Shown: in pieces, positions 19,551 to 56,441 of the stretch | Layout: each line of letters starts with the position of its first letter | Numbering within the stretch: position 1 is the first letter of the stretch | Origin: Acidobacteriota bacterium | Lineage (GTDB): Bacteria; Acidobacteriota; Thermoanaerobaculia; Multivoradales; JAHZIX01 | DNA length: 64,000 bases | Direction of reading: 5' to 3' | Assembly: GCA_034211275.1 (NCBI GenBank) | Contig: JAXHTF010000006.1 | Location: forward strand, 17,361-81,360 | The notes under the pieces: model-generated | Database searches by the model: none | What the model saw: the letters and a program-made list of their open reading frames with translations, nothing else | Told to the model about the DNA's origin: nothing | Position numbers and translations under genes: made by a program

Positions 19551-19626
19551 CCTAGGTAGCTCAGTTGGTAGAGCACGCGACTGAAAATCGCGGTGTCGGT
19601 GGTTCGATTCCGCCCCTGGGCACCAT
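19551..19626 (+). tRNA. tRNA-Phe (anticodon GAA), including encoded CCA.
   Basis: gcctaggtagctcagttggtagagcacgcgactGAAaatcgcggtgtcggtggttcgattccgcccctgggcacca forms a canonical cloverleaf with anticodon loop cuGAAaa. Confidence 0.9.
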
Positions 19627-19693
19627 TTCAATCTCCCAGAATCAACAGTTTGCGTCGGATATAGAGGTCCTCCTTGGAGGGCCTTTTTTGGTT
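19580..19693. repeat. attL: left copy of a ~110-bp direct repeat (tRNA-Phe 3' half plus ~65 bp downstream).
   Basis: gactgaaaatcgcggtgtcggtggttcgattccgcccctgggcaccatttcaatctccca is identical to 52375-52434. The following ~50 bp (…gaggtcctccttggagggccttttttggt) are near-identical to 52441-52488. Confidence 0.85.
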
Positions 19694-19975
19694 TGCCTGA
19701 CCACCGGACGAGCCTTGCGAGCAAGCCGGGGTGCTCGAGCCTCTTGGGTTTGTCGATTCTTGTCCCTTGGACTCCAAGAACAGGAAACGGAAATGCAGCT
19801 ACTGTGAGGTCGTCCTGTAGTTGTCTGATTCTGCCTTTAGGAGCGCCTCATTTTTTAAGGTTCCGAAGTAGCCTGAACGAGCCGGGGCACGGAGCCTCAA
19901 GTGTCGATAGGGCGTCCAAGCCAACGAATGGCCATCATGGCCCGTAGAGCTAGAGAGAGTTGGGAGGTGTGTCCG

Positions 19976-22900
19976 ATGGCTGGAAGAGAGGGAGGGGTCG
20001 TAGTGGCCAGGTGGGTTGGCTTTCTCGGTGGAATGGCGGTTCTCTGGGGGGCAGTTTTCCCTGGAGCGTTGCTGGCAAGTAACCCACTACGAGCGGCGGC
20101 CGAGCAAGCCGAGAGTCGTGAGGTTGAGGGGCGCGTGCCGATCTTCGCGGACGGCTTTGAGAGCGGCGATTATTTTGCCTGGTCTCAGGCGGTGTTTGAT
20201 ACGCCGGACAACACCCCACCAAGCCTCACCATCACAGCTCCAGTAGCTCCCGTCCTCTTTAACGAGCACATCGTCCCCATCGAGCTCGTTTATTCTGACG
20301 ATGACTCCGGAGTCGCTCTGAACAGCTTGGCCGTCCATGTCGATGGAATTCCGATTACGAGTAGCTGCGCAATTCAAGCCGGTACAGCGAGCTGTGAAAG
20401 CTTCTATCTCGGTGCAGGGAGTCACTCGATCTCCGCATCGATCTGGGATCAAGCCGGACACCGGACGGATGCCGCCCGCTCGGTGACGATTATTCGGGAC
20501 ATCAGCCCTCCGGTAATCACCCTCATAACGCCCCCCGAGGAGAATGCGCTTTTCGCGACACCGACGCTCCTGGTCACCGGCACGGTATCGGACGCCGATG
20601 AAGTCGCCGATGTCTTGGTCAGTGCAGAGCCAATTCCCCTCACCGACGACCCTCCTCAGCAAGAGCGCCTCGTGCAGTCGATCCGAGGCAGGATCGAGGG
20701 CGACACCTTCTCTGGGGAGGTGCCCCTTGGCGAAGGGTTGAATCTGGTCGTGGTGCGGGCTTTTGATCGAGCCGGCAATGAGGCGGTCGTTTCGAGGTTC
20801 GCCACGCGCGACTCCACTGCCCCGACCCTCGCCATCGAGTCGCCGCAAAGTGGAGCGGTGGTGAACGTGGACCAGGTCCTGGTCACGGGGCAAGCGTTTG
20901 ACGAGGCGCATGAGGTCACGCTCTCGGTCGGCGGTGTTCCTACGCCTCTGGACCTGCGCTCCTTTGCTGCGACCGTGCCCCTTTCTGAGGGTATGAATGC
21001 TGTCCTGGTCGAGGTTATAGATGAGGCCGGCAATACGACGTCCGAGACGCTTCAGGTCGAGCGGCTGACGATTCCTACCGTCACCATCACGAGCCCCACT
21101 TACGGTACGCGGGTCGGTGTAGCAGCAGTAGAAGTCCTGGGCACCGTCTCCGATCCCAACGCGAGCGTCCGCGTGAATGGCGTTGTGGCGACGACAGGTG
21201 GCGGCACCTTCCAGGCGACGATCCCGCTCAACCCCGGAGGTACCTTGATTGCCGCAGTCGCCACCAGTGCTTCGGGCGCTCAGGCGACCTCCAAGACGAA
21301 GGTCTTCCGGGATCTGAGCGCACCTCGCATCGCGGTCACCTCGCCCGCTGATGGCAGCACGGTGCACCAAGCGGCGATTCCTGTGGTGGGCCTGGTCAAC
21401 GATGTGGTGCCCGGAACCGTCGATGCGGTCGATGTGAACGTCTGGGTCAACGGGCAGCCTGCGCAGGTGGCGAACCGGTCGTTCTTACTCCCGGATCTCG
21501 TCCTCTCCCCAGGGGATAACGACATCACGGTCACCGCTGAGGACGTTGCGGGGAATCTCACCAGCGAGACTGTGACCGTTCACTATGAGCCACTCGTGGG
21601 CGCGCGTATCGAGAGGCTTTCTGGAAATCTGCAAAGCGCCGTCATCGAAACGCCCGTGGGCGCTCCCCTGGTGGTCCGAGTCCTCGACCCGGCTGACCAG
21701 CCAGTTGAAGGTGCTGTGGTCGTCTTCCGCGTGGCGCAGGGCAATGGCAGCGTGGGAGCGGGCTCGCGAACCACCTCCGTGCTCACGGATGCGAACGGCG
21801 AAGCTGCGACGCCCTATCAGCTGGGAACGCGGGCCGGCGTCGGGAATCAACGGGTGATCGCAGAAGCTGCGGGTTATGTGGGCAGTGCTGAGTTCCTTGC
21901 GACGGCGTTACCCGGCCCACCGGCCTACCTCCATGTCGACGCCGGCGGCCAGCAGCGTGGTGCCGCGCTTCAACTGCTGCCGGATCCCATGTCCGTGGTG
22001 GTCACAGATGCTGGATTCAACCGCTTGCCGGGTATAGAGGTTGAATATCAGGTAGCGCAAGGTCAGGCGGTTTTCGAAGAGACAGCGACGCCGACACTCT
22101 CGATGCTCACGGACGCAGATGGACGGGCAGCAGCCCAGGTCCGCCTCGGAGCGGAAGAGGGGGTGGCCAATGTGGTGATCGAGGTCGCGCTCCCCGGCAA
22201 TCCCACCGCGAGCCCCGCTACCTTCGTCGCCTCGACATTCGCTGCGGGGAATCCGGCTCTAACCCGAATCTCCGGAATCGTCCTGGACAATGCGAGCGAA
22301 CCGGTTCCCGGTGTCACCCTTAGCTTGGCTGGGACCAGTCATAGCACGCAGGCCAACGAGGACGGCCTCTTCAGTCTTGCAGGGGTTCCGGTGGGCACGT
22401 TCCACCTTGAAGCGGATGGCAGCACGGCGACGCGGCCGGGCACCTGGCCACATCTGGAGTTCGAGATCACGACCATTCCTGGTCGGGAAAACACTCTGGG
22501 CATGCCCATCTTCCTCTTGCCCTTGGATACGGAGCGAGGGCTTCAGGTCTCAGCGACCGAGGGCGGAACCTTGACGCTGCCCGAGCTTCCCGGATTCTCC
22601 CTGACCGTCGACCCAGGATCCGTCACCTTCCCGGACGGTACACAGGAGGGTACGGTCAGCGTCACCCTCGTGCATGGCGATAAGGTGCCGAAAGTGCCGA
22701 ACTTCGGTCAGCAGCCAACCTTCCTGCTCACGATCCAACCTGCGGGCGCCCTCTTCGATCCCCCGGCAAGCCTCTCCATGCCGAACGTGGATGCGCTGGC
22801 ACCGGGTACGGTGACGGAGCTCTACTCCTTCGACCACGACCTCGGCTCCTTTGTCAGCATCGGCCCCGGGACGGTGAGCGAAGATGGGACGATGGTGGTA

Positions 22901-24430
22901 GCGGATCCCGGGGTGGGGATCCTCAAGGCCGGCTGGCATTGCGGTGGCAATCCAGCGCCTACCGGTACGCCCCACGACTGCCCGCAGTGCAAGGTGTGTG
23001 ATGGGAGTCGGTGTGTTCCGGGGTGTGATCTCGAGGAAGGTACGGAGCCAGCACCCGTCTTGGGCGAGACTGCATTCGAGGTCGAGGGAGCGTGCCTCTG
23101 TGATGATGGGAACCCTTGTACTTTCAATGACCGCTGTGACACGGGGCCTTGTATCGGGACACACATCAACATCGATTCTGTTCTCGCCTCCGTAGACGGG
23201 GGACCTGGTCCTCTAGAACTTCCTCTCGTAGGAACCAGCACGCGCGAGGTCGAGTTTGTCTCCCAGCCTAGTCCGTCCGACCATGGCTGCCCGGACCTTC
23301 GCTATACCTGGCAAACAGGTGACGGTGGCTACTATCGGGATTCACTGACGCTGCATAGCTACTCCAGAGTGGGTACGTTCAAGCCCACAGCGACGATTAC
23401 ATGTGGATCTTGCCCGTTCGAGACGGCGAGCAAGACGCTCGATGTAGAGGTCTTTCCGCTTGCTATTCGTCTGGAGCAGGAGGGAGATATCGAGATCAGT
23501 ACAGATGGGAAATACACCGAAGATGCGACGATTCGGGTAACGGCTGTTAATGCTGATACCGGTGAGGTAGTGGAAGATTTCCAAGGAATGGTAAGTATTG
23601 AGGAGCGACCTCGTCCACGGGTTGGAACAGTCTACGACAAGTTCGCAGGAGAGCTGCCTGCGGCAGTACAGATTACCGCTGGCGGAACCGCTACCTTTCT
23701 TGCGAGATCCCAAGTCAATCATCAGAGCGGACGCGCTCCGACCTCGGCCCTACTAACAGTACCTGACATGCCCCTCTATGGCGGGCAGGAGCTGGAGGTT
23801 GAGCAATGGGTAGATACAGGGCCAGTAGATCCCCGTTCGCAGGGTGCAGTATATGATTGGCTTGAGCATCGGCTTCGAGATTTGTTTGTGGATTTCTCTT
23901 CCAACCTGGCAGTCAATCCTGCTTTGGAAACGATCAGTCACTATGAAGTCGACGAAAATCTGTCCGCCGTAGGGCAAACTCAGCTCACTCACACACCGAC
24001 CTCAGTGGTTGTGTTTAATCCTCTGGCGGCTACAAATATGAGAGTGCCAGGTACTCAGTCGCTCTCGCGCTGTAGCGACGAAGCGAGAGAGGATTTAGCG
24101 GTAACTTTGATTCATGAGGCGCGACATTCCTACCACGACTATCTGACGACTCTCGATTTGGCAGCGCCTGACGATTTTGATGGGCGTCCGAACAACGATG
24201 ACGATCAGGATTGGCTTGTAGAGGTCGTGCCGGCCGGATTGTGCCCTTGTGACTTTCTAGTCGATACATCCTTGCCAAGGAATGGCTGCGACTACGAAGC
24301 AGGTAACGGAGCAGGGCTTGTCGTCGAGGACTTAACCTTCCTCGGTGATGCAATCGTGGATGATCAGATCGAGGCATTCTATGTGTGGGAGATGGATGCT
24401 GTTCAGTTCTCCATTCAGCACAGCCCCTGA
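19976..24430 (+). CDS. Giant secreted repeat protein (~1484 aa) with multiple Ig-like/Big-type beta-sandwich repeats, a CarboxypepD_reg-like segment, a Cys-rich module and a C-terminal HEARH (HExxH-like) motif.
   Basis: GGAGG-ATG at 19976. Signal/TM segment FLGGMAVLWGAVFPGALLA. Reiterated x(I/V)T(S/A)PxxGxxV modules. CGGNPAPTGTPHDCPQCKVCDGSRCVPGCD...CLCDDGNPCTFNDRCDTGPC. LAVTLIHEARHSYHDY near the end. Confidence 0.7.
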   Translation: MAGREGGVVVARWVGFLGGMAVLWGAVFPGALLASNPLRAAAEQAESREVEGRVPIFADGFESGDYFAWSQAVFDTPDNTPPSLTITAPVAPVLFNEHIVPIELVYSDDDSGVALNSLAVHVDGIPITSSCAIQAGTASCESFYLGAGSHSISASIWDQAGHRTDAARSVTIIRDISPPVITLITPPEENALFATPTLLVTGTVSDADEVADVLVSAEPIPLTDDPPQQERLVQSIRGRIEGDTFSGEVPLGEGLNLVVVRAFDRAGNEAVVSRFATRDSTAPTLAIESPQSGAVVNVDQVLVTGQAFDEAHEVTLSVGGVPTPLDLRSFAATVPLSEGMNAVLVEVIDEAGNTTSETLQVERLTIPTVTITSPTYGTRVGVAAVEVLGTVSDPNASVRVNGVVATTGGGTFQATIPLNPGGTLIAAVATSASGAQATSKTKVFRDLSAPRIAVTSPADGSTVHQAAIPVVGLVNDVVPGTVDAVDVNVWVNGQPAQVANRSFLLPDLVLSPGDNDITVTAEDVAGNLTSETVTVHYEPLVGARIERLSGNLQSAVIETPVGAPLVVRVLDPADQPVEGAVVVFRVAQGNGSVGAGSRTTSVLTDANGEAATPYQLGTRAGVGNQRVIAEAAGYVGSAEFLATALPGPPAYLHVDAGGQQRGAALQLLPDPMSVVVTDAGFNRLPGIEVEYQVAQGQAVFEETATPTLSMLTDADGRAAAQVRLGAEEGVANVVIEVALPGNPTASPATFVASTFAAGNPALTRISGIVLDNASEPVPGVTLSLAGTSHSTQANEDGLFSLAGVPVGTFHLEADGSTATRPGTWPHLEFEITTIPGRENTLGMPIFLLPLDTERGLQVSATEGGTLTLPELPGFSLTVDPGSVTFPDGTQEGTVSVTLVHGDKVPKVPNFGQQPTFLLTIQPAGALFDPPASLSMPNVDALAPGTVTELYSFDHDLGSFVSIGPGTVSEDGTMVVADPGVGILKAGWHCGGNPAPTGTPHDCPQCKVCDGSRCVPGCDLEEGTEPAPVLGETAFEVEGACLCDDGNPCTFNDRCDTGPCIGTHINIDSVLASVDGGPGPLELPLVGTSTREVEFVSQPSPSDHGCPDLRYTWQTGDGGYYRDSLTLHSYSRVGTFKPTATITCGSCPFETASKTLDVEVFPLAIRLEQEGDIEISTDGKYTEDATIRVTAVNADTGEVVEDFQGMVSIEERPRPRVGTVYDKFAGELPAAVQITAGGTATFLARSQVNHQSGRAPTSALLTVPDMPLYGGQELEVEQWVDTGPVDPRSQGAVYDWLEHRLRDLFVDFSSNLAVNPALETISHYEVDENLSAVGQTQLTHTPTSVVVFNPLAATNMRVPGTQSLSRCSDEAREDLAVTLIHEARHSYHDYLTTLDLAAPDDFDGRPNNDDDQDWLVEVVPAGLCPCDFLVDTSLPRNGCDYEAGNGAGLVVEDLTFLGDAIVDDQIEAFYVWEMDAVQFSIQHSP

Positions 24431-24439
24431 GGAGGTCTA

Positions 24440-25423
24440 GTGAGATATTTGGCGTGTACTTTTCTTGCAGTACTTCTCGTGTGTTTGGTCTCGGCCCCTT
24501 CTGAGGCCTCAAGAATACGCCCTGATCCGATAGCTGACGAGCTGCGTAGTGTGTCCCGTCTTGCGAAATGCGGTGGGCAGTATGAACAAGGGCTGATGGC
24601 TCTGAAGGCTGCTATTGATGACCCTTCTCTTGATCCACGCCATCGAGCTCTCGCTGTGGCGCTTCTCGGCGACCTTTTTCTGGAGAGGTCTGATTTCGAG
24701 AAGGAAGGATACTTCATGATGCTTGCGACTCGGGGCCTCTCCGATCCAGATTTTGATGCGGTTGTCCCGGACTCCTTCCAGCAAGCCTCAAGAATTAGTG
24801 TAGAGAAGCTTGATCGCCCTAAAGCTCAGGAAAGCCGCCTCGTTGATCTTGTGAGTGCGCGGTTTGCTGACATTCCCATGGATCTAACAAGGGAGTGGGC
24901 AGCGAGGGAGCTTTGTGATCGGGGATCGGCGAGAGCGGAAGACAGCCTGCGGAGTGCCCTGGGGCCTCGGCTCGATGTGCGAGACCAAGAAGAAATCGAG
25001 TTATGTGGTCGGAAGGTAGCACTCTTGCTGGAATATGAAGATCCGAAGGACGCCTTTCTGATGGCGCTTTCTGAGATGCGCTCGGCGGATCTGGGCGAGC
25101 TTAATTCTCAGTCAGCAAACGAACTCCAACGCTGGGCCGTCGAAGGCCTTCTGCAACTTGATCCTGAGCTCGGTGAGAAGGAACTGCGGTCTATTGTCGC
25201 CGATTCCAATTGGAAATCGAGTGCTCGCAGTCAAGCGATCCGGAGACTGAAAGATCTAGGGTATCAGTATGAAGCCTTGGTCGAGATCGGCGTTGATCCT
25301 ATGGCTCTGATCCGGGAGCGTATCTATCCACTGAGCTACTACCAAGAGCGCGGAATCCCAATGGACCCGTGCGCCAGGCCGATTCCTTTGGCCTCGGAAG
25401 CGTCTGAAGAGACTGACTCCTGA
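24440..25423 (+). CDS. Hypothetical secreted protein, alpha-helical repeat (HEAT/TPR-like).
   Basis: Signal peptide MRYLACTFLAVLLVCLVSAPSEA. Repeated helical hairpins. No enzymatic motif. Confidence 0.5.
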   Translation: MRYLACTFLAVLLVCLVSAPSEASRIRPDPIADELRSVSRLAKCGGQYEQGLMALKAAIDDPSLDPRHRALAVALLGDLFLERSDFEKEGYFMMLATRGLSDPDFDAVVPDSFQQASRISVEKLDRPKAQESRLVDLVSARFADIPMDLTREWAARELCDRGSARAEDSLRSALGPRLDVRDQEEIELCGRKVALLLEYEDPKDAFLMALSEMRSADLGELNSQSANELQRWAVEGLLQLDPELGEKELRSIVADSNWKSSARSQAIRRLKDLGYQYEALVEIGVDPMALIRERIYPLSYYQERGIPMDPCARPIPLASEASEETDS

Positions 25424-25497
25424 GCGCTTTGAGAAGACAAGAGCGGGCTCTTGCAGTCTCCGACCACCAGTGCAAGGACTTGGGAAGGGAGTGAGGA

Positions 25498-28400
25498 ATG
25501 ACAGTGCTGAGATGGACTGGGATCGTGCTTGCCGGCTTGATAGCGCTCTGTGCGACCGCAAGGGCAAGTGCAGAACTCGACTCCTCCTGCCTCATCAGCG
25601 CTCTGAACCGGACGGCTCCGGTGGAAGCGGACGGGACGTGGGTCTTGCCGAATGTGCCGGCGAATCTGGGCAAGGTGCGGCTGCGGGCGACCTGTATTCG
25701 AGATGGCGTTGTTTCCACCGGCCAATCCGAGTTCATCGAGGTGCCAACGGATGGGGTGATCGAGGTGGCGGAGATTCGCTTTGATGTGAGCGAGCCGGTG
25801 CCGGAGCGCCTCGTGCTCAGTGCACCGACCACTTCCTTGACCACCGCTGGACAGACCGTGCAGCTCAACGCGACCGCTACCTATCCGGGTGGCAGCGATG
25901 TGGACGTGAGTACAGCGTCCGCTGGGACCACCTATCGCTCCAGCATGGCGACGGTGGCAAGCGTGGATCCCGATGGACTCGTCACCGCGGCAGCCAGCGG
26001 TACGGTCCTCGTGAGCGCGGTCAACGAGGGAGCGCTGGGGCTCTTGCGGCTATCTGTCGTGCTCTCAGGGGACAGCGATGGCGATGGGCTGCCGGATGAT
26101 TTCGAGCTCGCTAACGGGCTCGATCCCAACAATCCCGACGATGCGTTGCTCGACCATGACCAGGATGGGTTCTCCACCCTGGAGGAGTACCAGCAAGGGC
26201 TCGATCCCTTCGATAGCGATACGGACGATGACCAGCTGCTCGACGGCGCCGAGGTCGGGACCTGGGGCACCAATCCCCTCCTCTTCGATACTGACGGCGA
26301 CGGCCTCTCGGACGGCCTCGAGGTGGCGACGGGGAGTGACCCGCTGGACCGGCTGAGCTTCAACCTCGCTGCGGCGTTGGAGTCCATCACGGTGCTGCCG
26401 GACAGCTTCACCATCATCTACAACACGATTCTCGGCGAAGCCTCCCGGCAGCTGACGGTGACCGGACAGCTCATCGACGGCAACCAGCTCGACATCACCT
26501 CGGACTTTTACGGCACCTCCTACACCTCGGACGATCTGCTCGTGGCCAATTTCGGGGCGGAGCCCGGGCGTGTTTTTGCCGGGGAGGACGGCGTCACCAC
26601 CGTCACCGCGACCTGTAGCGGGTTCAGCGCTCAGGCAGATGTCACGGTGGAGAGCTTCGCGCCCATTGCTCTTTCCTTCCTGGCGCTCGGTGGAACGCCG
26701 CGGGCGGTGGCCCTGGACGGGACTCACGCCTACGCTGCCATGGGGCGCCCGGGACTCAAGATCGTCGATGTCAGCGACCCTGAGCTTCCCTTCGAGGCTG
26801 CTCGCATCTATGTCTCCTCCCCGCCGCCCTTCCGGGAGTACCGCGCGGTTTCCGATGTCGCGGTGCAGGACGGCATGGCCTATGTCGCAGCGGACGGACT
26901 GGCCGTGATCGATGTGACCGTGCCGGCCGCTCCAGTGCAGATTGCCTTCCTCTTGCCACCGGACATGAGCGCAGAGTCGGTGGCCGTTCGGGGGCATCGA
27001 GTGCTCGTCGGCGGGAGTGGCTTCCAGGGAGACCCGGGAGCCCTTGCCCTTATCGATATCAGCGACCCCGTGACCCCAGTGCTTCTCGGAATGGTCGGCC
27101 TGCCCGGGCAAGTCGAGGATGTGCTCTTTGCAGGGCAGTACGCGATTGCCGCGACGGGCTCTGCCGGCGTTCAGGTGGTCGATCTGGCGAACGAAGCGGC
27201 ACCCGAGGTGGTCGGCTCAACGCATACCCGCTCGAATAGTCGCTCCAGTGCGGTGGGGCTGGCGCTCGCGGGCGAGCAGGTCCTGGTGGCTGACGGTGGC
27301 CGGTACGGACTGCCAGGCGAAAAGCCGGGTGGGCTCCGCGTGATCGATCTGGCCGACCCGGCCAATCCCGCCCTCGTAGGGAGCACGAACAATCAGTTCG
27401 GTCTGACCGCTGTCGCTTGGGATGGCACGCTAGCGCTCGCTGCGGACTACTTCTTCGTCAATGGCGTGCCGGTCTTCCGCTTGGGGGAGACGGCGCCGCT
27501 GTGGACCGGCCTGGTGGACTTTTCCGGGCCGCCCAGTGGGCGAGACGACAACGGAGTCGATCTGGCGGTCGGGGGAGGGTTGGTGTACCTGGTCGGCAAT
27601 GAAGGCTCCACCGGTTCAGGAGGGCTTCATATCGGTCGCTACCTGATTCCCTTCGACGCCGAAGGCGTTCCGCCAACGGTGACCTTGACGGCTCCCGCCG
27701 AGGGAACGTTGGTGCCGGAGCGGCAGTGGGTCCAGGTCGCAGCGGATGCCAGCGATGACATCTTCGTGCAGTCCGTGACGTTCTCGCTGGACGGTCAGCC
27801 GGTGCGGGAGGACTTCGCGCCGCCGTATAGCGCCCGTATTCCGGTTCCGGCCGGCGTGGCCTCTGTCACTGTGACAGCGCAAGCCCGGGACGCTGGGGGC
27901 AATGTGTCGCCGGTTGCTTCAGTCGAGCTCGGCATTGAGCCCAACAGCGCACCCGTTGCCACGATTCTGGCGCCTCAGGACGGTTTGGGGGTGCAGGGGG
28001 GCGAGGTGATCTCCACGGTCGTCCAGGCGACGGACGATGTCGAGGTGGATCGGGTGGAGTTCTATGTCGATGGAGCGCTGGTTGGAACCGATGATCGTGG
28101 CCCCTCCTACCAGACCTTTCTGAATCTCGGATCCGCCCCTGGTACCTACCAACTCACTGCTCTTGCCTACGACGACGTTGGTCCCTCCGCGCCTGCGGGT
28201 CCGGTCTCGCTCGTTGTCGTGCCGGACGATCCGCCACAGGCCCAGGTACTGGAGCCGGCGGAAGGGGCTGAAGTCATCGCCTTCTCCTTGATCGATGTCC
28301 TCGCAGGAGCCAGTGATGCCGTGGGGATCGACCGCGTGGACTTCTACCAGGATGGCGCCCTGGTTGGCTCCGACTTTTCCGGGCCGGACTACCGAGCGAC

Positions 28401-29737: not shown

Positions 29738-29841
29738 GTACGGCGCTTTCGTCGCCGATGCCAGTCCCCCGACCCCTCGCTCGACAAGCCGCCCATGGGG
29801 TCGCGACGAGCGGCGCACTCTGCTGGAAGGAGAAGCACAGG

Positions 29842-43160: not shown

Positions 43161-43170
43161 CTTTCCCTTC

Positions 43171-44058: not shown

Positions 44059-44188
44059 GACGAAGCCGCTAGGAGGCTTCAGCCGCCAAGCCGGACCGCT
44101 GACGAGCTGGCTGGTTGAAAAGCCAGCTGCTCTATCTCCAGAAGCTGAGAGAGTTGAGCAGGTGACTGCAATCGCCAATCAACCATGG

Positions 44189-46471
44189 TCAAGCTAGTCC
44201 CGTCAATCGCTGTGAGCCTCCAGAGCGATCACTGTGTGACTGTGCGGCAGATCGCAGCAGGGCTTCCATTTCTTTGAAATGCGCCGGGGCTACTGATTTA
44301 ATAAGCGTCATCACATCCGCCATGACCGGCTGAGCTTCTGAGAGCTGAGACATATCTTGGTCGGCCGAGGACTCGAAATCTTCATTGTGAGAGAATGCAT
44401 GAGTGAATCTTACAATCCTAGTTGCCCGAACTGGCTCGCCATGGGAGAGTTCCTCGATTGCTCTTTCGAAGCTAGACCTGCGTGTGGGTCTGTGAAAACT
44501 AATGAATGCCTCTAGAAGGCGGCGCGCAGTATTGGGGAGATGACAAATTTCCTGATCGTGCAATGAGTCAGCCTGGGCCGCCGAGTGCACTATAGAAAAT
44601 AAGTAGTGATATTCAGATTCGAAAGTTCTGAGTAGGTAGTCCAGGGGCTGGAGAACTGCTTTACGCTCTCCGCTCGAATCAAGAAGAGCCTTCAGGGAGT
44701 AAAGGGAGCTGTTCTTCCTGTCTCCCAGGAACCACCTGCGAACGAGTCGAAAGAACGTGAAGTTGTGCGTCAAGATGAAAAGCTGCTTCGCCCCTACTGT
44801 CTTCGCGCGGATGAAGCTGAAGGCATTGAAGAGCGCATTCGAATCAAGGCTTGAGACGGGGTCATCTAGTACAACAATACCCTCCGAGACCTGGAAGGTC
44901 TGATCATGGAGACTCTGGAGGAAATAGAGAAGAGCGATTGCGGTGCGCTCACCTTCACTAAGACCCGTTGCTACAGATGTACCCGACCTAACTATCTGGT
45001 ATCCTTTCCCGAAAAGTTCAAAGCTTAGCTCGTCTCGGCCTAAGTACCTTCTAAGGTCTTTCGTGAGCTGTTCGGCTGAGAAGCTATGGGGATCAACGCG
45101 GCTCTTGATCTCCTTGACCTTCTCTTCAAGCTTCTGGATAGCCTTCCTGGAGGTCTTCTCATTCTCTCTGCATGCCTGTAGATCCTTCAAGAGCTGTGAG
45201 CGCTCATCTCCAGCCTCTGCAATGTGATGCTCTTCAATCTCTTTGCAAGCGCTATCCGCTCTGTCCTGGAGCGACTTCGTCTGCTGGTTGTGACTCAAGA
45301 TAATTGCATTAATAGACGCAATAGAGGAAGCCAGGTCAAGCTGAGTGTGAGCAGGAGGAATGGCAGGCGTCGAAAAAGGATTTGCTCGCTTCTCCTCCAA
45401 GCAGGCCTGGATTATCTCTAGCCTCTCAAGGTATGCCTCGATTTGTTCCTTGAGCTTGGCGCTTGCGGAGCGGTAGGAGTCAAGGTGATCCTGATACAAT
45501 TCTCCCTCTGTCGGAAGAGTATGTCTCACCAGAGTCTCGCGAGAGGTTGCTATTCCTTCCAGCTGCCTTTCTATGTCCTCCGTGAGCTGTCTGTGGCCCT
45601 GAGCAAAATAGTCTTCAAGTGCTTTGAGTCGCTCCTCTTCCAAGTGGTTGCCGCAGAAGCCGCACTGTTCCGCTTGGATGGCACGATGTAGCTGAAGGCC
45701 AGTGTCAACCCAGTTTCGCAAGTCTGAATTACTCTCCAAGGCCTCCATGGACTGCCGGGTTATGCTTCGGCTGAGAACCTCAGAAGCCGCTTCTTCAATA
45801 GAAGAGATGTTTGGATCCTGAATTGAAACGCTGTGCAGGTCGGGCCGCGGTTGCTGATTCTTTGTATGGGCAAGCGCCTTTAGTTCATCATCAGTTCTGA
45901 CCAGCTCGGACATAGGCCTACTGGACAGTTCGTCTGCTCGTCGTTCGTAGTCGTTTCGCTTGTAGTGTTGGTAACTCGGATTCCCGAGGAGCCGATCTTT
46001 GATTGCCTTTGCGGTGTCCTGCTGGTGTTTAGCCCAAGCGTTGTTTGCGGTCTTGGTTTCATTCTCGGCCTGAATCAGCTTCTTTCGCTCTTCCCTGAGC
46101 AGACTGGAGATCTCTTCCAGTTCTTTTTGATCAGCGATGTTCTCCTGTCCGAGAAAGACAATCCCGGGCATTCCTGACGGATTAAAGACGTTCTTCTCGA
46201 CGAAGCTCTTGGTGAAGACTTTGATTGGGATCTGCTCCAGCGCAGCCTCATTGCTGCTGTTAATCTTCTGGTTCTCAAGCTGAACCTCAAAAGAGCTGTT
46301 AGGGTTCTGAGTTCCAGTCTCGATCTGTCGCATGATCTCGACTAGAGAGGTCTTGCCGGCTCCGTTCCATCCGTAGATAAGGTTGTAGCGGCTGAAATCA
46401 TCGAGGCCAGGAGGCCAACTGAAATCTTGGAATAGGGCCGGTGCTTGAATTCGGAGAAATTGCTTGATCAT
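44189..46471 (-). CDS. RloC/PrrC-like AAA_13-family ABC ATPase (putative anticodon nuclease / abortive-infection protein) with a CxxC zinc hook.
   Basis: 760 aa. Walker A LIYGWNGAGKTSL. A long coiled coil carries AEQCGFCGNHLEE (CxxC). ABC signature/Walker B SEGERTAIALLYFL...GIVVLDDPVSSLDSNALFNAFSFI...LFILTHN. C-terminal HLPNTARRLLEAFISFH...FTHAFSHNED gives Arg/Glu/His spacing like the PrrC ACNase triad. GC is ~45%. Confidence 0.6.
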   Translation of the reverse strand: MIKQFLRIQAPALFQDFSWPPGLDDFSRYNLIYGWNGAGKTSLVEIMRQIETGTQNPNSSFEVQLENQKINSSNEAALEQIPIKVFTKSFVEKNVFNPSGMPGIVFLGQENIADQKELEEISSLLREERKKLIQAENETKTANNAWAKHQQDTAKAIKDRLLGNPSYQHYKRNDYERRADELSSRPMSELVRTDDELKALAHTKNQQPRPDLHSVSIQDPNISSIEEAASEVLSRSITRQSMEALESNSDLRNWVDTGLQLHRAIQAEQCGFCGNHLEEERLKALEDYFAQGHRQLTEDIERQLEGIATSRETLVRHTLPTEGELYQDHLDSYRSASAKLKEQIEAYLERLEIIQACLEEKRANPFSTPAIPPAHTQLDLASSIASINAIILSHNQQTKSLQDRADSACKEIEEHHIAEAGDERSQLLKDLQACRENEKTSRKAIQKLEEKVKEIKSRVDPHSFSAEQLTKDLRRYLGRDELSFELFGKGYQIVRSGTSVATGLSEGERTAIALLYFLQSLHDQTFQVSEGIVVLDDPVSSLDSNALFNAFSFIRAKTVGAKQLFILTHNFTFFRLVRRWFLGDRKNSSLYSLKALLDSSGERKAVLQPLDYLLRTFESEYHYLFSIVHSAAQADSLHDQEICHLPNTARRLLEAFISFHRPTRRSSFERAIEELSHGEPVRATRIVRFTHAFSHNEDFESSADQDMSQLSEAQPVMADVMTLIKSVAPAHFKEMEALLRSAAQSHSDRSGGSQRLTGLA

Positions 46472-46732
46472 GACTAGGTGGAATCATAATGCAAGAAGAT
46501 GGCATCCGAAAAGGGCATCTTAGGTGCTAGAAGATGGTAGCCTTGAGAAAATCAACATCGAGCCGGCATTTCTGGTTGACGCGCGGGTGGAGGAGAAGCT
46601 ACCTTACAGGTACTCAAGGCGAGTCTTGTGGTCACAAGTCCAGCCGAGCTTCACTTTCAAAAATCACCGGAAACCCGCATCCAGCCTACTGATTCGTGGC
46701 TTCGCCCAGGTCCGTTCTGGCTGGGGGTCGTG

Positions 46733-46765
46733 TGGTCGCAGGTTCAAGTCCTGTCTCCCCGACCA
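46733..46765 (+). other. Orphan tRNA 3'-end fragment (T-arm, acceptor 3' strand, ACCA), probably an att-site remnant.
   Basis: tcgcaggttcaagtcctgtctccccgacca has a T-loop TTCAAGT and ends in CCA. No matching 5' acceptor strand (cggggag) was found within 120 nt upstream. It lies 100 nt upstream of the third recombinase gene. Confidence 0.5.
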
Positions 46766-46866
46766 AAATCCCCTCCAACAGCGGCTTTCCGGGCGATTCA
46801 AGGGAAGAGATCAGGGCCCCGGTGACCACATGACCGAGTCATGAGGTCACTCTAACCCCTCTTCCC

Positions 46867-47769
46867 ATGCCCTCTGAATTGCGCACCTGGCACGAAGCTT
46901 TCTGCCAGCACTGCCTGGTCATGAAGCGCCAGTCGCCCTACACGGTCCGCGGGTACCGCGACACCCTCAATAGCTTCGTCAAGTACACCGGCGCAGCGGC
47001 CCTCGCCGATGTGACGCTGGCGAAGGTGGAGTCCTGGATCATGACCGGGACGACGCAGTGCCAGTGGTCACCGGTGACCAGCCGGGGCCGCATCAAGTAC
47101 ATGATCCTGTTCGCCAAGTGGTTGGTGAGCCGGGGGCATCTGGAGTCGAATCCGCTGGAGGGAATTAGCCTGCCCTCTATCCCGAAGAAGATTCCGCGGT
47201 CCCTGTCGCGGGAGCAGGCTGAGCAGCTTCTGCGCTTCGCCCGGAACTTTTCCTTCCAGACAGAGTTCGAAGGTGCCCGTGCCTACGCAATTCTGGCGAC
47301 CTTCATTTACACCGGCATCCGCAAGAGAGAGCTCCGCGAGCTGGAGCTCCGTGACGTCGATCTAGAGAACGGGATCCTCGCGGTGAGGGAGGGAAAGGGG
47401 GCCAAGGATCGGATGGTCGCCATCCCGCCCCAGCTGGCCTTGGTCCTGCGCGAGTACCTGAAGCACCGCCGCAGTCCGAGATATCAGCAGCTTCCGTACT
47501 TCTTCGTCGGAGCTACGGCCCTAGGTGGTGTCGGCAACGAGGCAATCCGTCGCTTGGTGAAGAAGCTCCGAGATGCCAGCGGCATCTACTTCGCGCCCCA
47601 CATGCTCCGGCACACCTATGCCACGCTGATGCTGGAAGGCGGCTGCGACCTGTTCAGCCTCTCGAAGCTGCTGGGGCACGCGGATATCAAGACGACTACG
47701 GTGTACCTGTCCGCTTCGGTGAGGCACCTTCAGAAGGAGGTGTTGAAGCATCCGGTTGTCGTTCACTAG
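46867..47769 (+). CDS. Tyrosine recombinase (XerC/D-like), the third on the island.
   Basis: 300 aa, ...AILATFIYTGIRKRELRELELRDV...GKGAKDRMVAIP...HMLRHTYATLML...GHADIKTTTVYL gives the R-H-R-Y catalytic set. Confidence 0.75.
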   Translation: MPSELRTWHEAFCQHCLVMKRQSPYTVRGYRDTLNSFVKYTGAAALADVTLAKVESWIMTGTTQCQWSPVTSRGRIKYMILFAKWLVSRGHLESNPLEGISLPSIPKKIPRSLSREQAEQLLRFARNFSFQTEFEGARAYAILATFIYTGIRKRELRELELRDVDLENGILAVREGKGAKDRMVAIPPQLALVLREYLKHRRSPRYQQLPYFFVGATALGGVGNEAIRRLVKKLRDASGIYFAPHMLRHTYATLMLEGGCDLFSLSKLLGHADIKTTTVYLSASVRHLQKEVLKHPVVVH

Positions 47770-47891
47770 AGGTGCCAAACTCGTGAGAGCCCCGAAATAC
47801 GGCTTACTGATGGTATATTCTTGTTCAGGCTTGAAAACAATGAGGCACTACGAGAAAGATAGGTCCTGAGCAGGAGTGACAGGGTAGCTCT

Positions 47892-49601
47892 GTGAAAAGA
47901 GTGAGACGAAAGAGAGAGAGACAGTTCAAGGGGGCCAAGTCAGCTACGAGGCAAGCCTTATTTCTATTGAAGGCATGCGACCTAGATTGGCTCTGGAAGT
48001 TCTGTGCCCTCATTTCCTGTCATGATCTATTTGGGCCAACACTTGCTGAGGGTGCCAATGCCCTTTATGTCAATTTCGCCAAGACTAGGGCTCTTGTTGA
48101 TCTTGTGCTGAAGTCCGGGGCCAGAGATGATGTGGATAAAATACTCCATATGGAAGAGGTGCGAGATCTCCTTAACTTGCTAGTTGATGTCCAAAATGAT
48201 CCAGAGGTTTTCAAGAGCGCAGAAAAGGCGAAGGGGACTCCGGCGGCGGCTTTTGAGTTCCATCGATCTATGTGCAGGCTAGGTAGCAATCAGACTGCTG
48301 ACCAGGAGGGGGTTTTCTGGAATGCAGCAGGTCGACTAATTGCTAAATGGGAGCTCCTGCCTCTTGAGAACCAGAGCCTACTTCCTAGTCGAGAACGACA
48401 GCGCGTCTTGGAGGTAGCTCATAGGATTCCTGAAGTTCTTGGTGCTGAGATATCGGAACTGAGTCTGGTCTGCTTGGCAATATTTCAGGTGTATAGGGAT
48501 GCCTACGCGAATCTTTCTCGCACACTTCCCGTCATACCGCACGAGGCTTTTTGCAGCCAATATGAGAAAAGGCAAGCACTTGATCAGCTGATGACGGCTC
48601 TGGAGGCTGGGGGATTCAGCGATCTATTGGTGATAAATCCCCGTCGTCTCCGGGAAATGCTTCGCGATAAGGAAGGCTTGGTTGATTCCTATCTTTCTCT
48701 CTTCAGTCGGTCTGTTGAGGAGCTTCGCTCGCTGCAGAAGGATTATTCTGTGGGTCAGTCACCTCACTACAGCCGAGATTTGAGCGTGCTTGATCGCTTT
48801 CCGCTTGTTAGGAGGGCCGATGGAACCTATATCGTGCCGAATGTCCGGTTTCTTTTGAAAAGTTTCGTTCCCAATGTCGAGTTCACCCTGGTTGAGCTTC
48901 TAGGTGACAATTTCTGGCACGCGAACGGGGCGACTCAAGAGGCTTATCTTCTAAAGCTACTCTCGGCCCGTCTTCCAGGATACACGCTGGTGGAAGAGCG
49001 AGCCTATGGAAAGCAGGAACTCCGGGGACCTGATGTCACTATTGTTGATGCTCAGGCGGAAGGTCTAATACTTGTGGAGTCGAAAGGAAAGAGGATTGGG
49101 GCGAGAACGAGGTTTGTTATGTCTGATGATCTTCTTGATGACAACCTGAAGGTCGCCTACTCTGCTCTACAAGGCCTGCCGGTGAAATTTGAGGCTTTAT
49201 TGAGTGGCATCCCAGAGTATGCTGATGCCCAAGATGCTCTAGATTCCGCGCGGTCGAACTCCCCGATTTGTGTTGTGGTTATGAACGACTCGGTCATGAT
49301 GATGAGCGAGCTGATTCGTATGTTGATTGCCATGAATCCTGAGCACCAACTTCAGGGGTTTCCTTTTCAATTTTGCATTGTCGGAATCGGAGCCTTCGAG
49401 CTAGCAGTGGAAGTGGCGAGTAGGAATGGTAGCTCGTTGTACAGGTTGCTTTCCCAGCACTGGGAGAGAAGCGCCGAGATCGATCCTGGGAGAGGCTCTG
49501 CTGACCTGTTTGGTGGATTCTGGCCGGATACGGAGCCGGCTTTTGGGGCAGAGTTACTTAGGGCGAGGCTGAAGAGTAGGCTTGGCGATCTCGTTGCGTG
49601 A
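47892..49601 (+). CDS. Hypothetical protein (569 aa) with a C-terminal PD-(D/E)xK nuclease-like motif, low GC.
   Basis: ...RGPDVTIVDAQAEGLILVESKGKRIGA matches the D-x(n)-(D/E)-x-K restriction-endonuclease-fold core. The N-terminal 380 aa are unassigned. GC is ~48%. Confidence 0.5.
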   Translation: MKRVRRKRERQFKGAKSATRQALFLLKACDLDWLWKFCALISCHDLFGPTLAEGANALYVNFAKTRALVDLVLKSGARDDVDKILHMEEVRDLLNLLVDVQNDPEVFKSAEKAKGTPAAAFEFHRSMCRLGSNQTADQEGVFWNAAGRLIAKWELLPLENQSLLPSRERQRVLEVAHRIPEVLGAEISELSLVCLAIFQVYRDAYANLSRTLPVIPHEAFCSQYEKRQALDQLMTALEAGGFSDLLVINPRRLREMLRDKEGLVDSYLSLFSRSVEELRSLQKDYSVGQSPHYSRDLSVLDRFPLVRRADGTYIVPNVRFLLKSFVPNVEFTLVELLGDNFWHANGATQEAYLLKLLSARLPGYTLVEERAYGKQELRGPDVTIVDAQAEGLILVESKGKRIGARTRFVMSDDLLDDNLKVAYSALQGLPVKFEALLSGIPEYADAQDALDSARSNSPICVVVMNDSVMMMSELIRMLIAMNPEHQLQGFPFQFCIVGIGAFELAVEVASRNGSSLYRLLSQHWERSAEIDPGRGSADLFGGFWPDTEPAFGAELLRARLKSRLGDLVA

Positions 49602-49830
49602 TCTCCTGGTTCTGGGCTCGGATGAGAATGCGCCTGGCTGAGAGGATGAGCGGGTGCCTTCGCGTGCTGGGTGGTGAGACGATGGTTCTGAATCAATTTG
49701 GCAGCAAGGCTCGGCGCAATGGCTAGCAAGAGATCCTTCCTTGTTGGATTATTCTGGAGCAAGATGATCTGTCTTGGGGGGTATTGTGGGAATAGGAAGA
49801 GAAATTTCTGATATCGGTGGGAGGTGATTA

Positions 49831-50766
49831 TTGAAAACGATTTGGAGGGTGTTGAGGGTTTCTCTGGGCTGGCTATCTCGTTTGTTCATGGGGTTCATCA
49901 AGCTACCCAAGAGAGGATGGCTTTCCTACGCGCGATGGGCTGAGAGGCATCGGGGCGGGATACCCGCTATCCAGCTCCTTTCTAGCGTGGCTTTTGCTGT
50001 TATGTCGGTCATAGTCTCTTCTCTTGCGATTAATCTCGCCCGGGAGCAGAATCTTCTGGTTGAGCGCCAGGTGCAGCTTGCGGATGAGCAGGGTGAGCTT
50101 GCGAATAGGCAGCTCGCTCTGGCTGAGGCTCAGATCAAGCCGAAGATCAGGTTAAGATACAGATCAGAGTGTAAGAGTGGAGAAGTCTGTCCTTTCGGAG
50201 ACTACGACTGTGTCGAGTTTTGGAACGATTCTGGGCCTCTCGAAGGTCTCAATGTAATGCAGCATAGCTTTCTATTGGTGAGTCGAAATGATAGGCCTAA
50301 TGAAGAAGTACGTTATGTTCCTATGTACTATCTTCAGTCGAGGCAGCTGACGGGGGCCGGTCGGGGGTTACTTGGTACTTTCTGCGCTTTTATGAAGGAG
50401 GTGAATTCTCGCAATAGAACGGCGAAAGTCGAGAAGATAAGATCTTCCCTCTGGGAGAGAGGGGTATTCAATATTGACGTGAGAGTTGTGCTTAATTTCT
50501 TGTACGTAGATCTTCTCGGGAGGAAATATGATGAGTTCTACTTGGCTCCTGCGGGGGCCTTTTGGTCTGGAGATCTACCGGCTACCATACTTTCCCCTGA
50601 AGAGGCTAAGCAGGCTTGGGAGATGGGTTTTGCAGAGCCTTGGTTCGGTGATCCTGTGATGCTAGGTAACGCACTTGACACAATTGATCATAATTATTTA
50701 GAGCGGAACTGGGACAGCTTACCGGTGGTGCGGCAGCCTCTATTAGAGACCTTGCAGGTTCGCTAG
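49831..50766 (+). CDS. Hypothetical membrane-anchored protein (311 aa) downstream of the nuclease-like gene.
   Basis: TM helix IQLLSSVAFAVMSVIVSSLAINLA, then a coiled-coil stretch. No motif. Confidence 0.45.
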   Translation: MKTIWRVLRVSLGWLSRLFMGFIKLPKRGWLSYARWAERHRGGIPAIQLLSSVAFAVMSVIVSSLAINLAREQNLLVERQVQLADEQGELANRQLALAEAQIKPKIRLRYRSECKSGEVCPFGDYDCVEFWNDSGPLEGLNVMQHSFLLVSRNDRPNEEVRYVPMYYLQSRQLTGAGRGLLGTFCAFMKEVNSRNRTAKVEKIRSSLWERGVFNIDVRVVLNFLYVDLLGRKYDEFYLAPAGAFWSGDLPATILSPEEAKQAWEMGFAEPWFGDPVMLGNALDTIDHNYLERNWDSLPVVRQPLLETLQVR

Positions 50767-51009
50767 GGGACGTTTTATCTCCTAGATCAGGTTCTCCTTA
50801 TTGATGTCGATTGTAAGAGTTTTAGGGAGGATCGCAGGCGCTTTATCTTTGCTGAGATTCAGCGACCGAATTGGTCCTAGAGTGATAGAGGGGAAGTCTA
50901 TTACGAAGGCAGTGAAGGTGGCCCCAATTCTTTTTCCGAACAAGACAAGTTGATCACCGAGTGGGATACTCAGAGGAAAAGCAGGAGAGCCGGAAGGCAA
51001 TGAACGCGT

Positions 51010-52170
51010 TTACTCGTAGGCTCTCAAAGCCGCCGCCAACTCCCCCGACACCCTCTCTGCCGCCTCCTTGAGGGGATCATCCGCCAGATGCGCATACCGC
51101 GCCGTAGTCGCGGGCTGGGTATGCCCCAGAAGCCGGCCGATGATGGGCAGGCCAATCCCAGCGCCGGCGGCGAAGGCGGCGTGAGTGTGGCGGAGATCGT
51201 GGAGGCGGACGTCTTCGAGGCCTGCCGCGGTTCGGATGCGGTCCCAGGGGCGCTGGAGGCCGACTAGGCGCTGGCCCTTGCGGTAGCCGGCGCAGACGAA
51301 AGGGTTGTCCTCGCGTCGGGGCGCTTCCACCAAGAGCTGCAATGCGGCGGCGCCGAGGCGAATCACTTTCTGGCCGGTCTTCGAGTCCGGCAGCCTCAGA
51401 CAGCCCTGCTCGAAATCCACGAAGGACCACTGGAGCTCCAGGATCTCGTTGCGGCGAGCGCCGGTGAGGATCAGCAGGCGGATGGCGAGGAGGGCTGAGG
51501 GATGCTCGGTCTCATGGCGCTCGGCCTCGGTGAGGGCCTCGCCCAGGCGACCGAGCTCGGCTGCGGAGAGGAATCGCTCGCGCTTCTGTTCCTTGTAGCG
51601 TTCCACGTGGCGGCAGGGATTCGAGTTGAGGGGGCGGAGGCCCCAGCGCTCGGCGAGGTTGAACATCTTCGAAAGCAGCGCCAGGACCCTGTTGGCCTGG
51701 GTTCGCTTTTGGCGCATCTCGTAGTGCAGGGTCGAGATCTGCTCCAATTGGATGTCTGTGACCCGGCGCTTGCCGAGCTGCGGGAGGACATAGAGGCGCA
51801 GGAGCCGCTCATCGGTCTGAGCGCTGGAGGCCTTCTTCTTGACCCGGGCGTGCTCCTCCAGATAGCGCTCCGCCAGATCAGCCACGGTGGGGGCGCGGCG
51901 CTGGTCCTGCCGGACCTGGCCCGGATCGTTGCCGAGAGTGACTTCCGCCAGGACCTTCCGAGCCCGGTCACGGGCCTGCTCGATGGTCAGGACTCCGTAG
52001 CGGCCCAGGGAGAGGAATCGCTTGCGGCGCCCAACGCGGTAGGAGACCAGGAAGTACTTCTTGCCCGACGGGTAGATGCGGACTCCAAAAGCCGGGAGAG
52101 TGTCGTCCCAACGGTAGTCTGTGCCTCCCTCATAGGTGGCGGAGTCGAGGGCGGTCTTGGTCAGTCTCAT
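51010..52170 (-). CDS. Site-specific tyrosine integrase (P4-like, DUF4102-type N-terminus) of the island.
   Basis: MRLTKTALDSATYEGGTDYRWDDTLPAFGVRIYPSGKKYFLVSYRVGRRKRFLSLGRYGVLTIEQARDRARK (P4-type arm-binding N-terminus). Catalytic ...HDLRHTHAAFA...GHTQPATTARYAH. The ATG at 52170 was verified. The longer track ORF (to 52422) reads antisense through the tRNA-derived repeat. Confidence 0.85.
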   Translation of the reverse strand: MRLTKTALDSATYEGGTDYRWDDTLPAFGVRIYPSGKKYFLVSYRVGRRKRFLSLGRYGVLTIEQARDRARKVLAEVTLGNDPGQVRQDQRRAPTVADLAERYLEEHARVKKKASSAQTDERLLRLYVLPQLGKRRVTDIQLEQISTLHYEMRQKRTQANRVLALLSKMFNLAERWGLRPLNSNPCRHVERYKEQKRERFLSAAELGRLGEALTEAERHETEHPSALLAIRLLILTGARRNEILELQWSFVDFEQGCLRLPDSKTGQKVIRLGAAALQLLVEAPRREDNPFVCAGYRKGQRLVGLQRPWDRIRTAAGLEDVRLHDLRHTHAAFAAGAGIGLPIIGRLLGHTQPATTARYAHLADDPLKEAAERVSGELAAALRAYE

Positions 52171-52374
52171 GGGGCATCTCCAGGTCGAGCGGCCAGGTCC
52201 GAGATCGAGGCTCGCGCAACCAGTGCGCAACCAAAACGCAACCAGGATAGGCCGAAATCCATGGTGCAAGCTCGCTGTCCATGGCTCGAAGGCTAGCACA
52301 TAAGTATAGTAATTAGAGAGACTTAAGAGGTCTTGTCGTAGTTGATCGAAATCTGTGTAAGACGCCTGTTCGAG

Positions 52375-52488
52375 GACTGAAAATCGCGGTGTCGGTGGTT
52401 CGATTCCGCCCCTGGGCACCATTTCAATCTCCCAAAAAGCAAGAGCTTGTGTCCGATACGAAGGTCCTCCTTGGAGGGCCTTTTTTGG
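52375..52488. repeat. attR: right copy of the tRNA-Phe-derived direct repeat.
   Basis: Matches tRNA-Phe from the anticodon loop to the 3' end plus downstream sequence; see attL. Confidence 0.85.
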
Positions 52489-56438: not shown

Positions 56439-56441
56439 TGC

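Follow-up and report, generated by a model that had tools for sequence, protein, structure and literature searches.

A tRNA-Phe-associated, probably helper-dependent mobilizable element with an anchorless VirD4-type coupling protein and recombinase-linked defence candidates in an Acidobacteriota genome

We analyzed a 64,000-nucleotide stretch of a contig from an uncultured Acidobacteriota bacterium (assembly GCA_034211275.1; hereafter, the window), in which the 3′ half of a tRNA-Phe gene occurs twice, some 33 kb apart. The interval between the two copies carries genes for an integrase, a relaxase, a coupling protein and a primase, and these are interspersed with AT-richer cargo (Table 1). As argued below, the interval from 19579 to 52489 (~32.7 kb) is very probably an integrative mobilizable element (IME) that is inserted in the chromosomal tRNA-Phe gene, within its 3′ half, and depends on a helper for its transfer.

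Table 1 Features of the island and its target site in the window (positions in nt; blocks A to E are the low-GC blocks described in the text)
Feature	Position	Strand	Evidence or remarks
tRNA-Phe(GAA), intact, putative integration target	19550-19625	+	ARAGORN; Rfam RF00005, 68.6 bits
attL repeat	19579-19692	+	exact core 19579-19638, then putatively element-borne tRNA trailer and terminator hairpin
Ig-like/Glucodextran_B/CarboxypepD_reg surface protein, 1509 aa (block A/cargo)	19901-24430	+	Pfam
Signal-peptide/lipoprotein-like protein, 327 aa (block A)	24440-25423	+	weak HEAT repeats
Big_7/LVIVD/TSP3/CarboxypepD_reg surface protein, 1292 aa (cargo)	25498-29376	+	Pfam
UPF0175 antitoxin-like small protein	29480-29737	+	Pfam
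RadC-like JAB domain fused to H-NS C-terminal DNA-binding domain	29758-30657	+	Pfam
VirD4/TraG-type coupling protein (T4CP), 436 aa (backbone)	30780-32090	+	Walker A and B present; no transmembrane segment
Uncharacterized protein, 524 aa (block B)	32122-33696	-	
Uncharacterized protein, 252 aa (block B)	33751-34509	-	
Acidic backbone protein, 190 aa, downstream of relaxase	35012-35584	-	44% identical to L034 counterpart
Relaxase, MobA/VirD2 nuclease domain, ~283 aa	35623-36474	-	PF03432; HFDADNPHVH motif
MobC/NikA-like relaxosome accessory protein	36449-36841	-	PF05713
Candidate origin of transfer (oriT)	37120-37216	+	hairpin 37127-37146; inverted repeat 37172-37180/37200-37208; CAATCTTGC at 37208-37216
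Transmembrane protein, 191 aa (block C)	37385-37960	-	
SH3 and polytopic membrane protein, 507 aa (block C)	38360-39883	+	
Transmembrane-anchored beta-sandwich protein, 605 aa (block C)	40068-41885	-	
Toprim/CHC2 zinc-ribbon primase (backbone)	42036-43160	+	53-57% identical to relatives
TR1, Xer-like tyrosine recombinase	43141-44058	+	Pfam E = 9e-33; absent at this position in relatives
AAA_13 ATPase, 760 aa, PADLOC candidate single-gene system PDC-S06 (block D)	44189-46471	-	Pfam 4.4e-149
tRNA 3′-end-like fragment	46741-46765	+	T-arm, acceptor strand and CCA; GGTTCAAGTCCTGTCTCCCCGACCA; ~100 bp upstream of TR2
TR2, Xer-like tyrosine recombinase	46867-47769	+	29% identical to TR1
Distantly GapS1-like protein, 569 aa (block E)	47892-49601	+	PD-(D/E)xK-like motif (PDVTIVD...VESKGK)
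Uncharacterized single-transmembrane protein, 311 aa (block E)	49831-50766	+	
P4-type tyrosine integrase, 386 aa	51010-52170	-	Pfam, full catalytic domain; homologs 55-64% identical
attR repeat	52375-52489	+	core 52375-52434, then putatively native trailer and terminator

Both flanks of the interval are housekeeping chromosome, with tatC, a sulfatase gene, a kpsF-like gene, pyrG, ubiB, corA and purH on the left and a mltF-like gene and a metallophosphoesterase gene on the right. The interval itself is compositionally distinct (57.7% GC versus 65.6%). The repeats at its two ends align over 115 nt with 91% identity and a single indel. Their first 60 nt, which run from the anticodon stem/loop to the 3′ CCA and 13 nt beyond it, are identical; the following ~55 nt, at ~82% identity, hold the same terminator hairpin (GGTCCTCCTTGGAGGGCC, then a T-run), so that this part of the repeat is a diverged yet homologous terminator hairpin. 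A 25-nt probe from the core, with up to three mismatches allowed, matched exactly twice in the window (0.00 matches expected), and a blastn-short search found no degenerate internal att copies. The absence of decayed internal copies argues for one element rather than a tandem array.

The integrase gene lies inside the element, with its start 205 bp from the right repeat. Its product contains the Arm-DNA-bind_3 (PF13356, 3.3e-16), Phage_int_M and Phage_integrase (PF00589, 8e-20, profile positions 10-170 of 172) domains, and the R..HxxR..Y residues are present in the motifs ARRNE, HDLRH and RYAH. The long open reading frame (ORF) extends into the tRNA fragment, and M85 is the true start. Homologs with 55-64% identity are abundant, the top named match coming from Thermoanaerobaculia. 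At every integrase locus inspected, a tRNA 3′ fragment is found 180-200 bp upstream of the integrase gene (int), on the opposite strand, and at none of these loci in relatives does an intact tRNA gene stand beside the integrase. The fragment is that of tRNA-Phe, beginning at GACTGAAAATC, in the window and in the related loci L026 and L029, and it is tRNA-Thr(CGT)-like in L030, L035 and L036, where it begins at the structurally equivalent GATTCGTAATC. This shared start in the anticodon loop would be the product of an integrase clade that crosses over there and carries the tRNA 3′ half in its attP; given the recurrent geometry, it is very unlikely that the repeat arose by chance or by duplication, and site-specific integration is supported as far as sequence can tell. 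The adjoining of int and a displaced tRNA fragment is a trait of this family and differs from the familiar layout, in which int lies beside the intact tRNA gene. A motif, ACTTAWGRGG, is also conserved 30-40 nt upstream of the partial tRNA at all integrase loci (52325-52345 in the window; L029, L030 and L035), and possibly serves as an arm-type site for the integrase or as the promoter of int.

The center of the interval encodes the mobilization functions. The relaxase motif has the form HxDxxxPHxH, and the protein is 48-56% identical to its counterparts in relatives. Upstream of mobC lies a non-coding segment that is conserved in alignments of four family members and that, as single-stranded DNA, gave a fold z score of -3.7. 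It contains a GC-rich hairpin, the stem of which shows compensatory changes in L033 (CGAAGGGG/CCCCTTCG versus CGAGGGGG/CCCCCTCG), followed by an inverted repeat that differs in sequence in 4/4 members, folds in all of them and always abuts the invariant CAATCTTGC. Rfam recognized no known RNA over this region. An inverted repeat followed by an ATCCTG-like nick region is the layout of RP4- and Ti-type oriTs, and the hairpin, the inverted repeat and CAATCTTGC together likely constitute an oriT. We rejected two ORFs in this part of the element as probably spurious: 36782-37345, which overlaps the conserved non-coding oriT region, and 34940-35722, which is antisense to the gene for the 190-aa protein and has no match in Pfam, PADLOC or NCBIfam.

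Pfam scans of all substantial ORFs between 19.6 and 52.4 kb revealed neither VirB4 nor any other mating-pore component of a type IV secretion system (T4SS), and the corresponding modules of relatives likewise lack them. The element encodes a coupling protein. This T4CP matches PF02534 (1.4e-64), PF12696 (1.1e-24) and PF10412, possesses the Walker motifs GSGKT and LLDEFG, and is closest to VirD4/Cag5-type proteins, with a match to Cag5. A hydropathy scan found no hydrophobic segment in it, and thus no N-terminal transmembrane domain (TMD), and the ORF is immediately preceded by a stop codon. The shortness is not peculiar to the window: all 120 of the best-matching homologs are 395-562 aa long, and the sixteen of them whose N-termini we read (16/16) begin just before Walker A and have no TMD. 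We also considered whether block B had truncated the protein, and rejected this, as the C-termini of the homologs vary and are equally short. Its sequence thus places the protein among the TMD-less T4CPs. These are a recognised subgroup, in which TraJ of pIP501 acts with a small membrane partner, and mobilizable plasmids with a T4CP of their own, such as CloDF13 (MOBC1), also exist (PMC7434980).

The original prediction, made from the sequence of the stretch, had described most of this architecture, and our analysis bears it out. It had claimed that the 3′ half of tRNA-Phe is duplicated with downstream sequence at the right end, that a P4-type integrase gene abuts this copy to give an attL-island-int-attR structure, that MobC, a relaxase, an oriT-like inverted repeat, an anchorless T4CP and a primase form a mobilization module, and that no mating-pore apparatus accompanies them. 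The repeat analysis, the Pfam domains, alignments and hydropathy, and the matching geometry in relatives agree with it on each of these points, and its overall reading of a tRNA-Phe-integrated mobilizable element is upheld by the backbone that the relatives share. The contrary outcome that it had named, a dispersed repeat family, is contradicted by the two copies found with the 25-nt probe and blastn-short.

Relatives with a common gene order are represented by L026/L031 (a metagenome-assembled genome (MAG) of Thermoanaerobaculia), L029/L033 and L034. In these, the genes for the H-NS-domain protein, T4CP, variable cargo, relaxase, MobC/NikA, primase and integrase follow each other in the same order and orientation as in the window, with the oriT candidate between mobC and the primase gene (relaxase-mobC-oriT-primase-int); in L031, for example, an H-NS gene is found at the corresponding place ahead of the T4CP gene. 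The integrase and the T4CP are both 64% identical to those of relatives. Their variable cargo includes an ECF sigma factor, a Ser/Thr kinase-TPR protein and CARDB. The spacing of the modules differs from that in the window: the primase gene and int overlap tail-to-tail in L026 and L029 but are 7.85 kb apart in the window, and MobC and primase are separated by ~40-280 bp in relatives versus 5.2 kb. Since these modules adjoin each other in relatives, we take blocks C, D and E to be insertions into a pre-existing backbone; block B occupies the usual cargo slot of the family. The window T4CP is 100% identical to a protein of an Acidobacteriota MAG at NCBI; otherwise, the proteins of the window were met solely on short contigs of one Logan run, SRR24907501, and searches of plasmid DNA and proteins gave only H-NS or distant recombinase matches.

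In two relatives, we observed that the IME-type module adjoins a second module with HTH_17, Replic_Relax and a ~850-aa TrwB-like ATPase (L033 1685-7363; L034 20418-21296 / L035 11220-19636). On L035, it is this second module, not the IME, that adjoins the P4-type integrase. Whether as a partner in tandem or as a helper element, the second module may be associated with the IME.

The cargo stands out by composition. A 300-nt GC profile revealed five low-GC blocks (A, 23200-25450; B, 32100-34900; C, 37300-42000; D, 44100-46700; E, 47750-50950), and 4/5 of them fill gaps between modules, two of these gaps being closed in relatives. The gene-wise distribution of GC at third codon positions is bimodal, with 0.80-0.89 for genes of the host flanks and 0.72-0.84 for the backbone (T4CP, relaxase, MobC, primase, integrase and both small recombinases), versus 0.51-0.57 for cargo genes. 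The original prediction of a GC mosaic was therefore right in substance, although the blocks number five rather than four, and its suggestion of repeated cargo acquisition is supported by the low-GC blocks at the two places where the backbone of relatives is contiguous. Its third claim about the cargo, that defence-like genes are stacked in it, held in part: two of the five blocks (D, with PDC-S06, and E, with a sub-threshold GapS1-like gene) carry such candidates, and none was recognised in A, B and C. The PADLOC run that it had proposed returned one match, PDC-S06, among ~12 cargo genes.

The PDC-S06 match is full-length (PDLC04894, E = 6.2e-211, residues 1-738 of the protein against positions 1-737 of 740 of the profile). 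In the literature that we found, PDC-S06 is a prediction, with anti-phage activity not reported as validated. The 569-aa protein of block E scored 31.3 bits against the NCBIfam model NF047931, for which the cutoff is 320, and has a D...ExK-like motif at residues 380-400; the alignment to the GapS1 model spans the part in which the PD-(D/E)xK site of GAPS1 has been located (bioRxiv 10.1101/2023.03.28.534373). Judged by its sequence, it is a distant relative of GapS1 at best, not a member of that family. Among 5.8 billion proteins it has one other relative, encoded on the unrelated contig L037. This protein is 48% identical to it and follows a tyrosine recombinase that is 80% identical to residues 170-299 of TR2, and there too the cargo gene is low in GC within a high-GC context.

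Each of the two candidates stands next to an Xer-like recombinase gene. A tRNA 3′-end pattern occurs three times in the window (0.00 expected), in tRNA-Phe, in attR and in the fragment upstream of TR2. Rfam support for this last fragment as a tRNA is weak, and its CCCCGACCA end resembles tRNA-Pro. The ORF 46524-46844, which overlaps it, is probably spurious. Searches for inverted and direct repeats flanking the recombinase modules gave only weak, chance-level pairs. TR2 and the GapS1-like gene can be read as a small recombinase-linked module nested in the IME, and TR1 and PDC-S06, by analogy, as another. A bolder proposal is that TR1 with PDC-S06, and the tRNA-like fragment with TR2 and the GapS1-like gene, are miniature, self-moving integrative defence cassettes nested in larger elements; we consider this conjecture unlikely. 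In a public gene call for the Logan contig L010, an antisense 360-aa ORF (3142-4224, corresponding to 43096-44178 of the window, minus strand) was taken in preference to TR1, a gene-calling artefact of high-GC DNA.

The remaining cargo is largely uncharacterized. In the 1509-aa surface protein, GC content falls from ~63% to ~52% over the last ~400 aa, where an HExxH motif (IHEARH) is found, and the layout of 23200-25423 resembles a swapped C-terminal effector domain with an immunity-like partner. The block B proteins have no match in Pfam, PADLOC, PHROGs or the PDB, and a single-sequence AlphaFold2 (AF2) model of the 524-aa protein was unusable (pLDDT 38). Block C encodes proteins of the membrane or the extracytoplasmic space, and no defence domain was recognised in them. 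Among them, the 605-aa protein belongs to an uncharacterized family (196 representatives at E <= 1e-3) with an invariant GSCP and other motifs. It has an N-terminal transmembrane helix, and alignment-based AF2 modeling (pLDDT 77) predicts beta-sandwich domains; it has no Pfam or PDB match, and the structural neighbors of the model are generic beta-sandwiches. PDB sequence searches of the cargo proteins returned nothing meaningful, and a promoter and terminator scan showed no enrichment.

How such an element would work can be outlined. By definition, an IME encodes an integrase and a relaxase, sometimes with a coupling protein (PMC12084326). The island has a site-specific recombinase with att repeats, its own relaxase with a candidate oriT, and no VirB4 or other T4SS genes. 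The integrase would recombine attL with attR to form a circle, and MobC and the relaxase would nick it at the conserved CAATCTTGC beside the hairpin. Since the island has no mating pore of its own, the soluble coupling protein would deliver the relaxase-bound DNA to that of a co-resident conjugative element. In the recipient, the primase would prime complementary-strand synthesis, and the integrase would insert the circle into tRNA-Phe. As attP would carry the tRNA 3′ half with its own terminator, the tRNA gene would stay intact upon integration; the 3′ half of the present tRNA-Phe gene would then be derived from the element, and the attR core would be the displaced 3′ half of the host gene. 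Cargo would have accumulated as ~50% GC DNA in the gaps between backbone modules, including the two single-gene defence candidates linked to recombinases, which are nested in the primase-integrase interval. We infer excision, nicking, pore docking, priming and re-integration from the genes present and from what is established about these protein families. It is also conceivable, if speculative, that the H-NS-domain protein silences the AT-richer cargo.

Several observations weigh against a presently mobile IME. The main caveat concerns mobility today, which is putative: no gene for an excisionase or recombination directionality factor (RDF) was recognised in the element, and no helper T4SS is known for the host. 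Neither an empty attB nor an excised circle was obtained: contigs from the source sample break at the repeat, and exact-protein look-ups of the flanking genes returned short Logan contigs from SRR24907501 alone, which end at the repeat. Relatives of the MltF-like protein of the right flank, in genome and metagenome contigs, are 33-50% identical, and none of their genes has an adjacent tRNA gene that could mark an empty site. The TMD is essential in canonical VirD4-type proteins (PMC7434980), and no small membrane partner is evident beside the T4CP gene. With regard to the MOB class of the relaxase (MOBQ or MOBP), the PF03432 domain and the three-histidine motif were seen, and a PDB search gave a weak MobM motif match. 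The assignment of the nick position to CAATCTTGC is an inference from conservation.

These points would be accommodated if the island were a former IME that has become a fixed, domesticated carrier of cargo and no longer excises or transfers. About 60% of its length is cargo, nested recombinase modules split the backbone, the coupling protein has neither anchor nor partner, no excisionase was recognised, and the single sample in which the element occurs showed it in a single state. On the other hand, the 60-nt att cores are still identical, the genes for the integrase, relaxase, MobC, T4CP and primase are full-length with intact motifs and no frameshifts, and the oriT-like element is intact. 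We therefore regard a fixed island as a serious alternative, but one with the odds clearly against it.

A degenerate integrative and conjugative element (ICE) whose type IV secretion genes were deleted, or were replaced by low-GC blocks, would likewise possess both a relaxase and a coupling protein, and low-GC blocks do lie between the modules. However, the same slots are also free of genes for VirB4 and other pore components in the cargo-poor relatives L031, L033 and L034, and the best T4CP homologs are uniformly short, with no TMD in those read. Together, these two features suggest that the pore-less state is ancestral to the family, and they make such a loss improbable. A prophage or phage satellite at tRNA-Phe, as the P4-type integrase and the primase might suggest, is highly improbable given the relaxase, MobC and T4CP, the absence of capsid, terminase and tail genes, and the failure of all ten uncharacterized cargo ORFs to match PHROGs (0/10). 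We give equally little credence to a local duplication or dispersed repeat with ordinary chromosome between the copies: the repeat does run ~55 nt past the tRNA into the terminator, longer than many att cores, but it has just two copies, a partial copy with the same anticodon-loop start lies beside homologous integrases at five independent loci, and the compositionally distinct interval is flanked by housekeeping genes.

The helper-dependent IME thus remains the reading that we favor, and its architecture is that of a known kind of element. For Firmicutes, a catalogue exists of IMEs that encode an integrase, a relaxase and a coupling protein (Guedon et al. 2017, cited in PMC7434980 and PMC12084326). 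The element resembles them in its tyrosine integrase with att repeats, its own relaxase, MobC-type protein, oriT and VirD4-like T4CP, and its lack of VirB4 and pore genes; composite or nested ('matryoshka') structures also occur among them. It differs in its Acidobacteriota host, in its Toprim primase and H-NS-domain protein, in the position of the integrase distal to the intact tRNA, and in being known here from sequence. With TraJ of pIP501, it shares a coupling ATPase without a membrane anchor, but TraJ works with a small membrane protein next to it, TraI, and no such partner can be seen beside the window T4CP. Like CloDF13, it would be a mobilizable element that has its own T4CP and uses a foreign pore. 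The element is also comparable to the GMT islands with GAPS1 in that single-gene defence candidates are variable cargo at fixed slots (bioRxiv 10.1101/2023.03.28.534373), although here each candidate is paired with an Xer-like recombinase rather than the GMT trio, and the GapS1 similarity, at 31 bits, is far below the family cutoff of 320.

Turning to the integration site, the pheV/pheU islands of Enterobacteria and ICEMlSymR7A at phe-tRNA are P4-type integrase islands at tRNA genes. The element is like them in the Arm-DNA-bind_3 (DUF4102) N-terminus of its integrase, in the tRNA 3′ half that appears to be targeted and reconstituted, and in the direct repeat at the far end. Unlike in those islands, the integrase of the window and its relatives abuts the displaced partial tRNA on the opposite strand, and the att homology reaches into the trailer and terminator. 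In the searchable literature, we found this family described nowhere.

To the right of the island, we observed further repeats and tRNA-like sequences. A tRNA at 59773-59846 (Rfam, 58.4 bits) has the very unusual anticodon ATT and is directly preceded by a tRNA-3′-half-like piece (…GGTTCGATTCCCCACC, 59759-59775); the two, at 59728-59846, may represent a further att remnant or a pair of tRNA pseudogenes. Two direct repeats are also present. One, of 90 nt (93%; 56435-56524 and 63895-63984), covers a gene 3′ end and terminator, pointing to paralogous genes or to the duplication of a small unit, and the other is 251 nt long (94%; 61291-61541 and 62841-63091).

The current understanding of how such elements work is unchanged by these results, and their main interest lies in the conserved backbone, the anchorless VirD4 family and the recombinase-linked defence modules. 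Mobile elements are poorly described in the Acidobacteriota, a dominant and rarely cultured soil phylum. Taken together, the locus and its relatives reveal a recurrent backbone of IMEs, consisting of an integrase, a primase, MobC, a relaxase, an oriT, an anchorless VirD4 and an H-NS-like protein, in an IME family that targets the anticodon-loop side of tRNA genes. They raise the testable question of how a VirD4 protein without a TMD would dock to the pore of a helper. If the conjecture of self-moving cassettes is true, these cassettes would represent recombinase-driven stacking of immunity genes on an IME family, the anchorless coupling protein of which would exploit a still unknown transfer apparatus in Acidobacteriota. 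The backbone also provides a handle for finding cargo slots, including those with candidate defence genes, in metagenomes.

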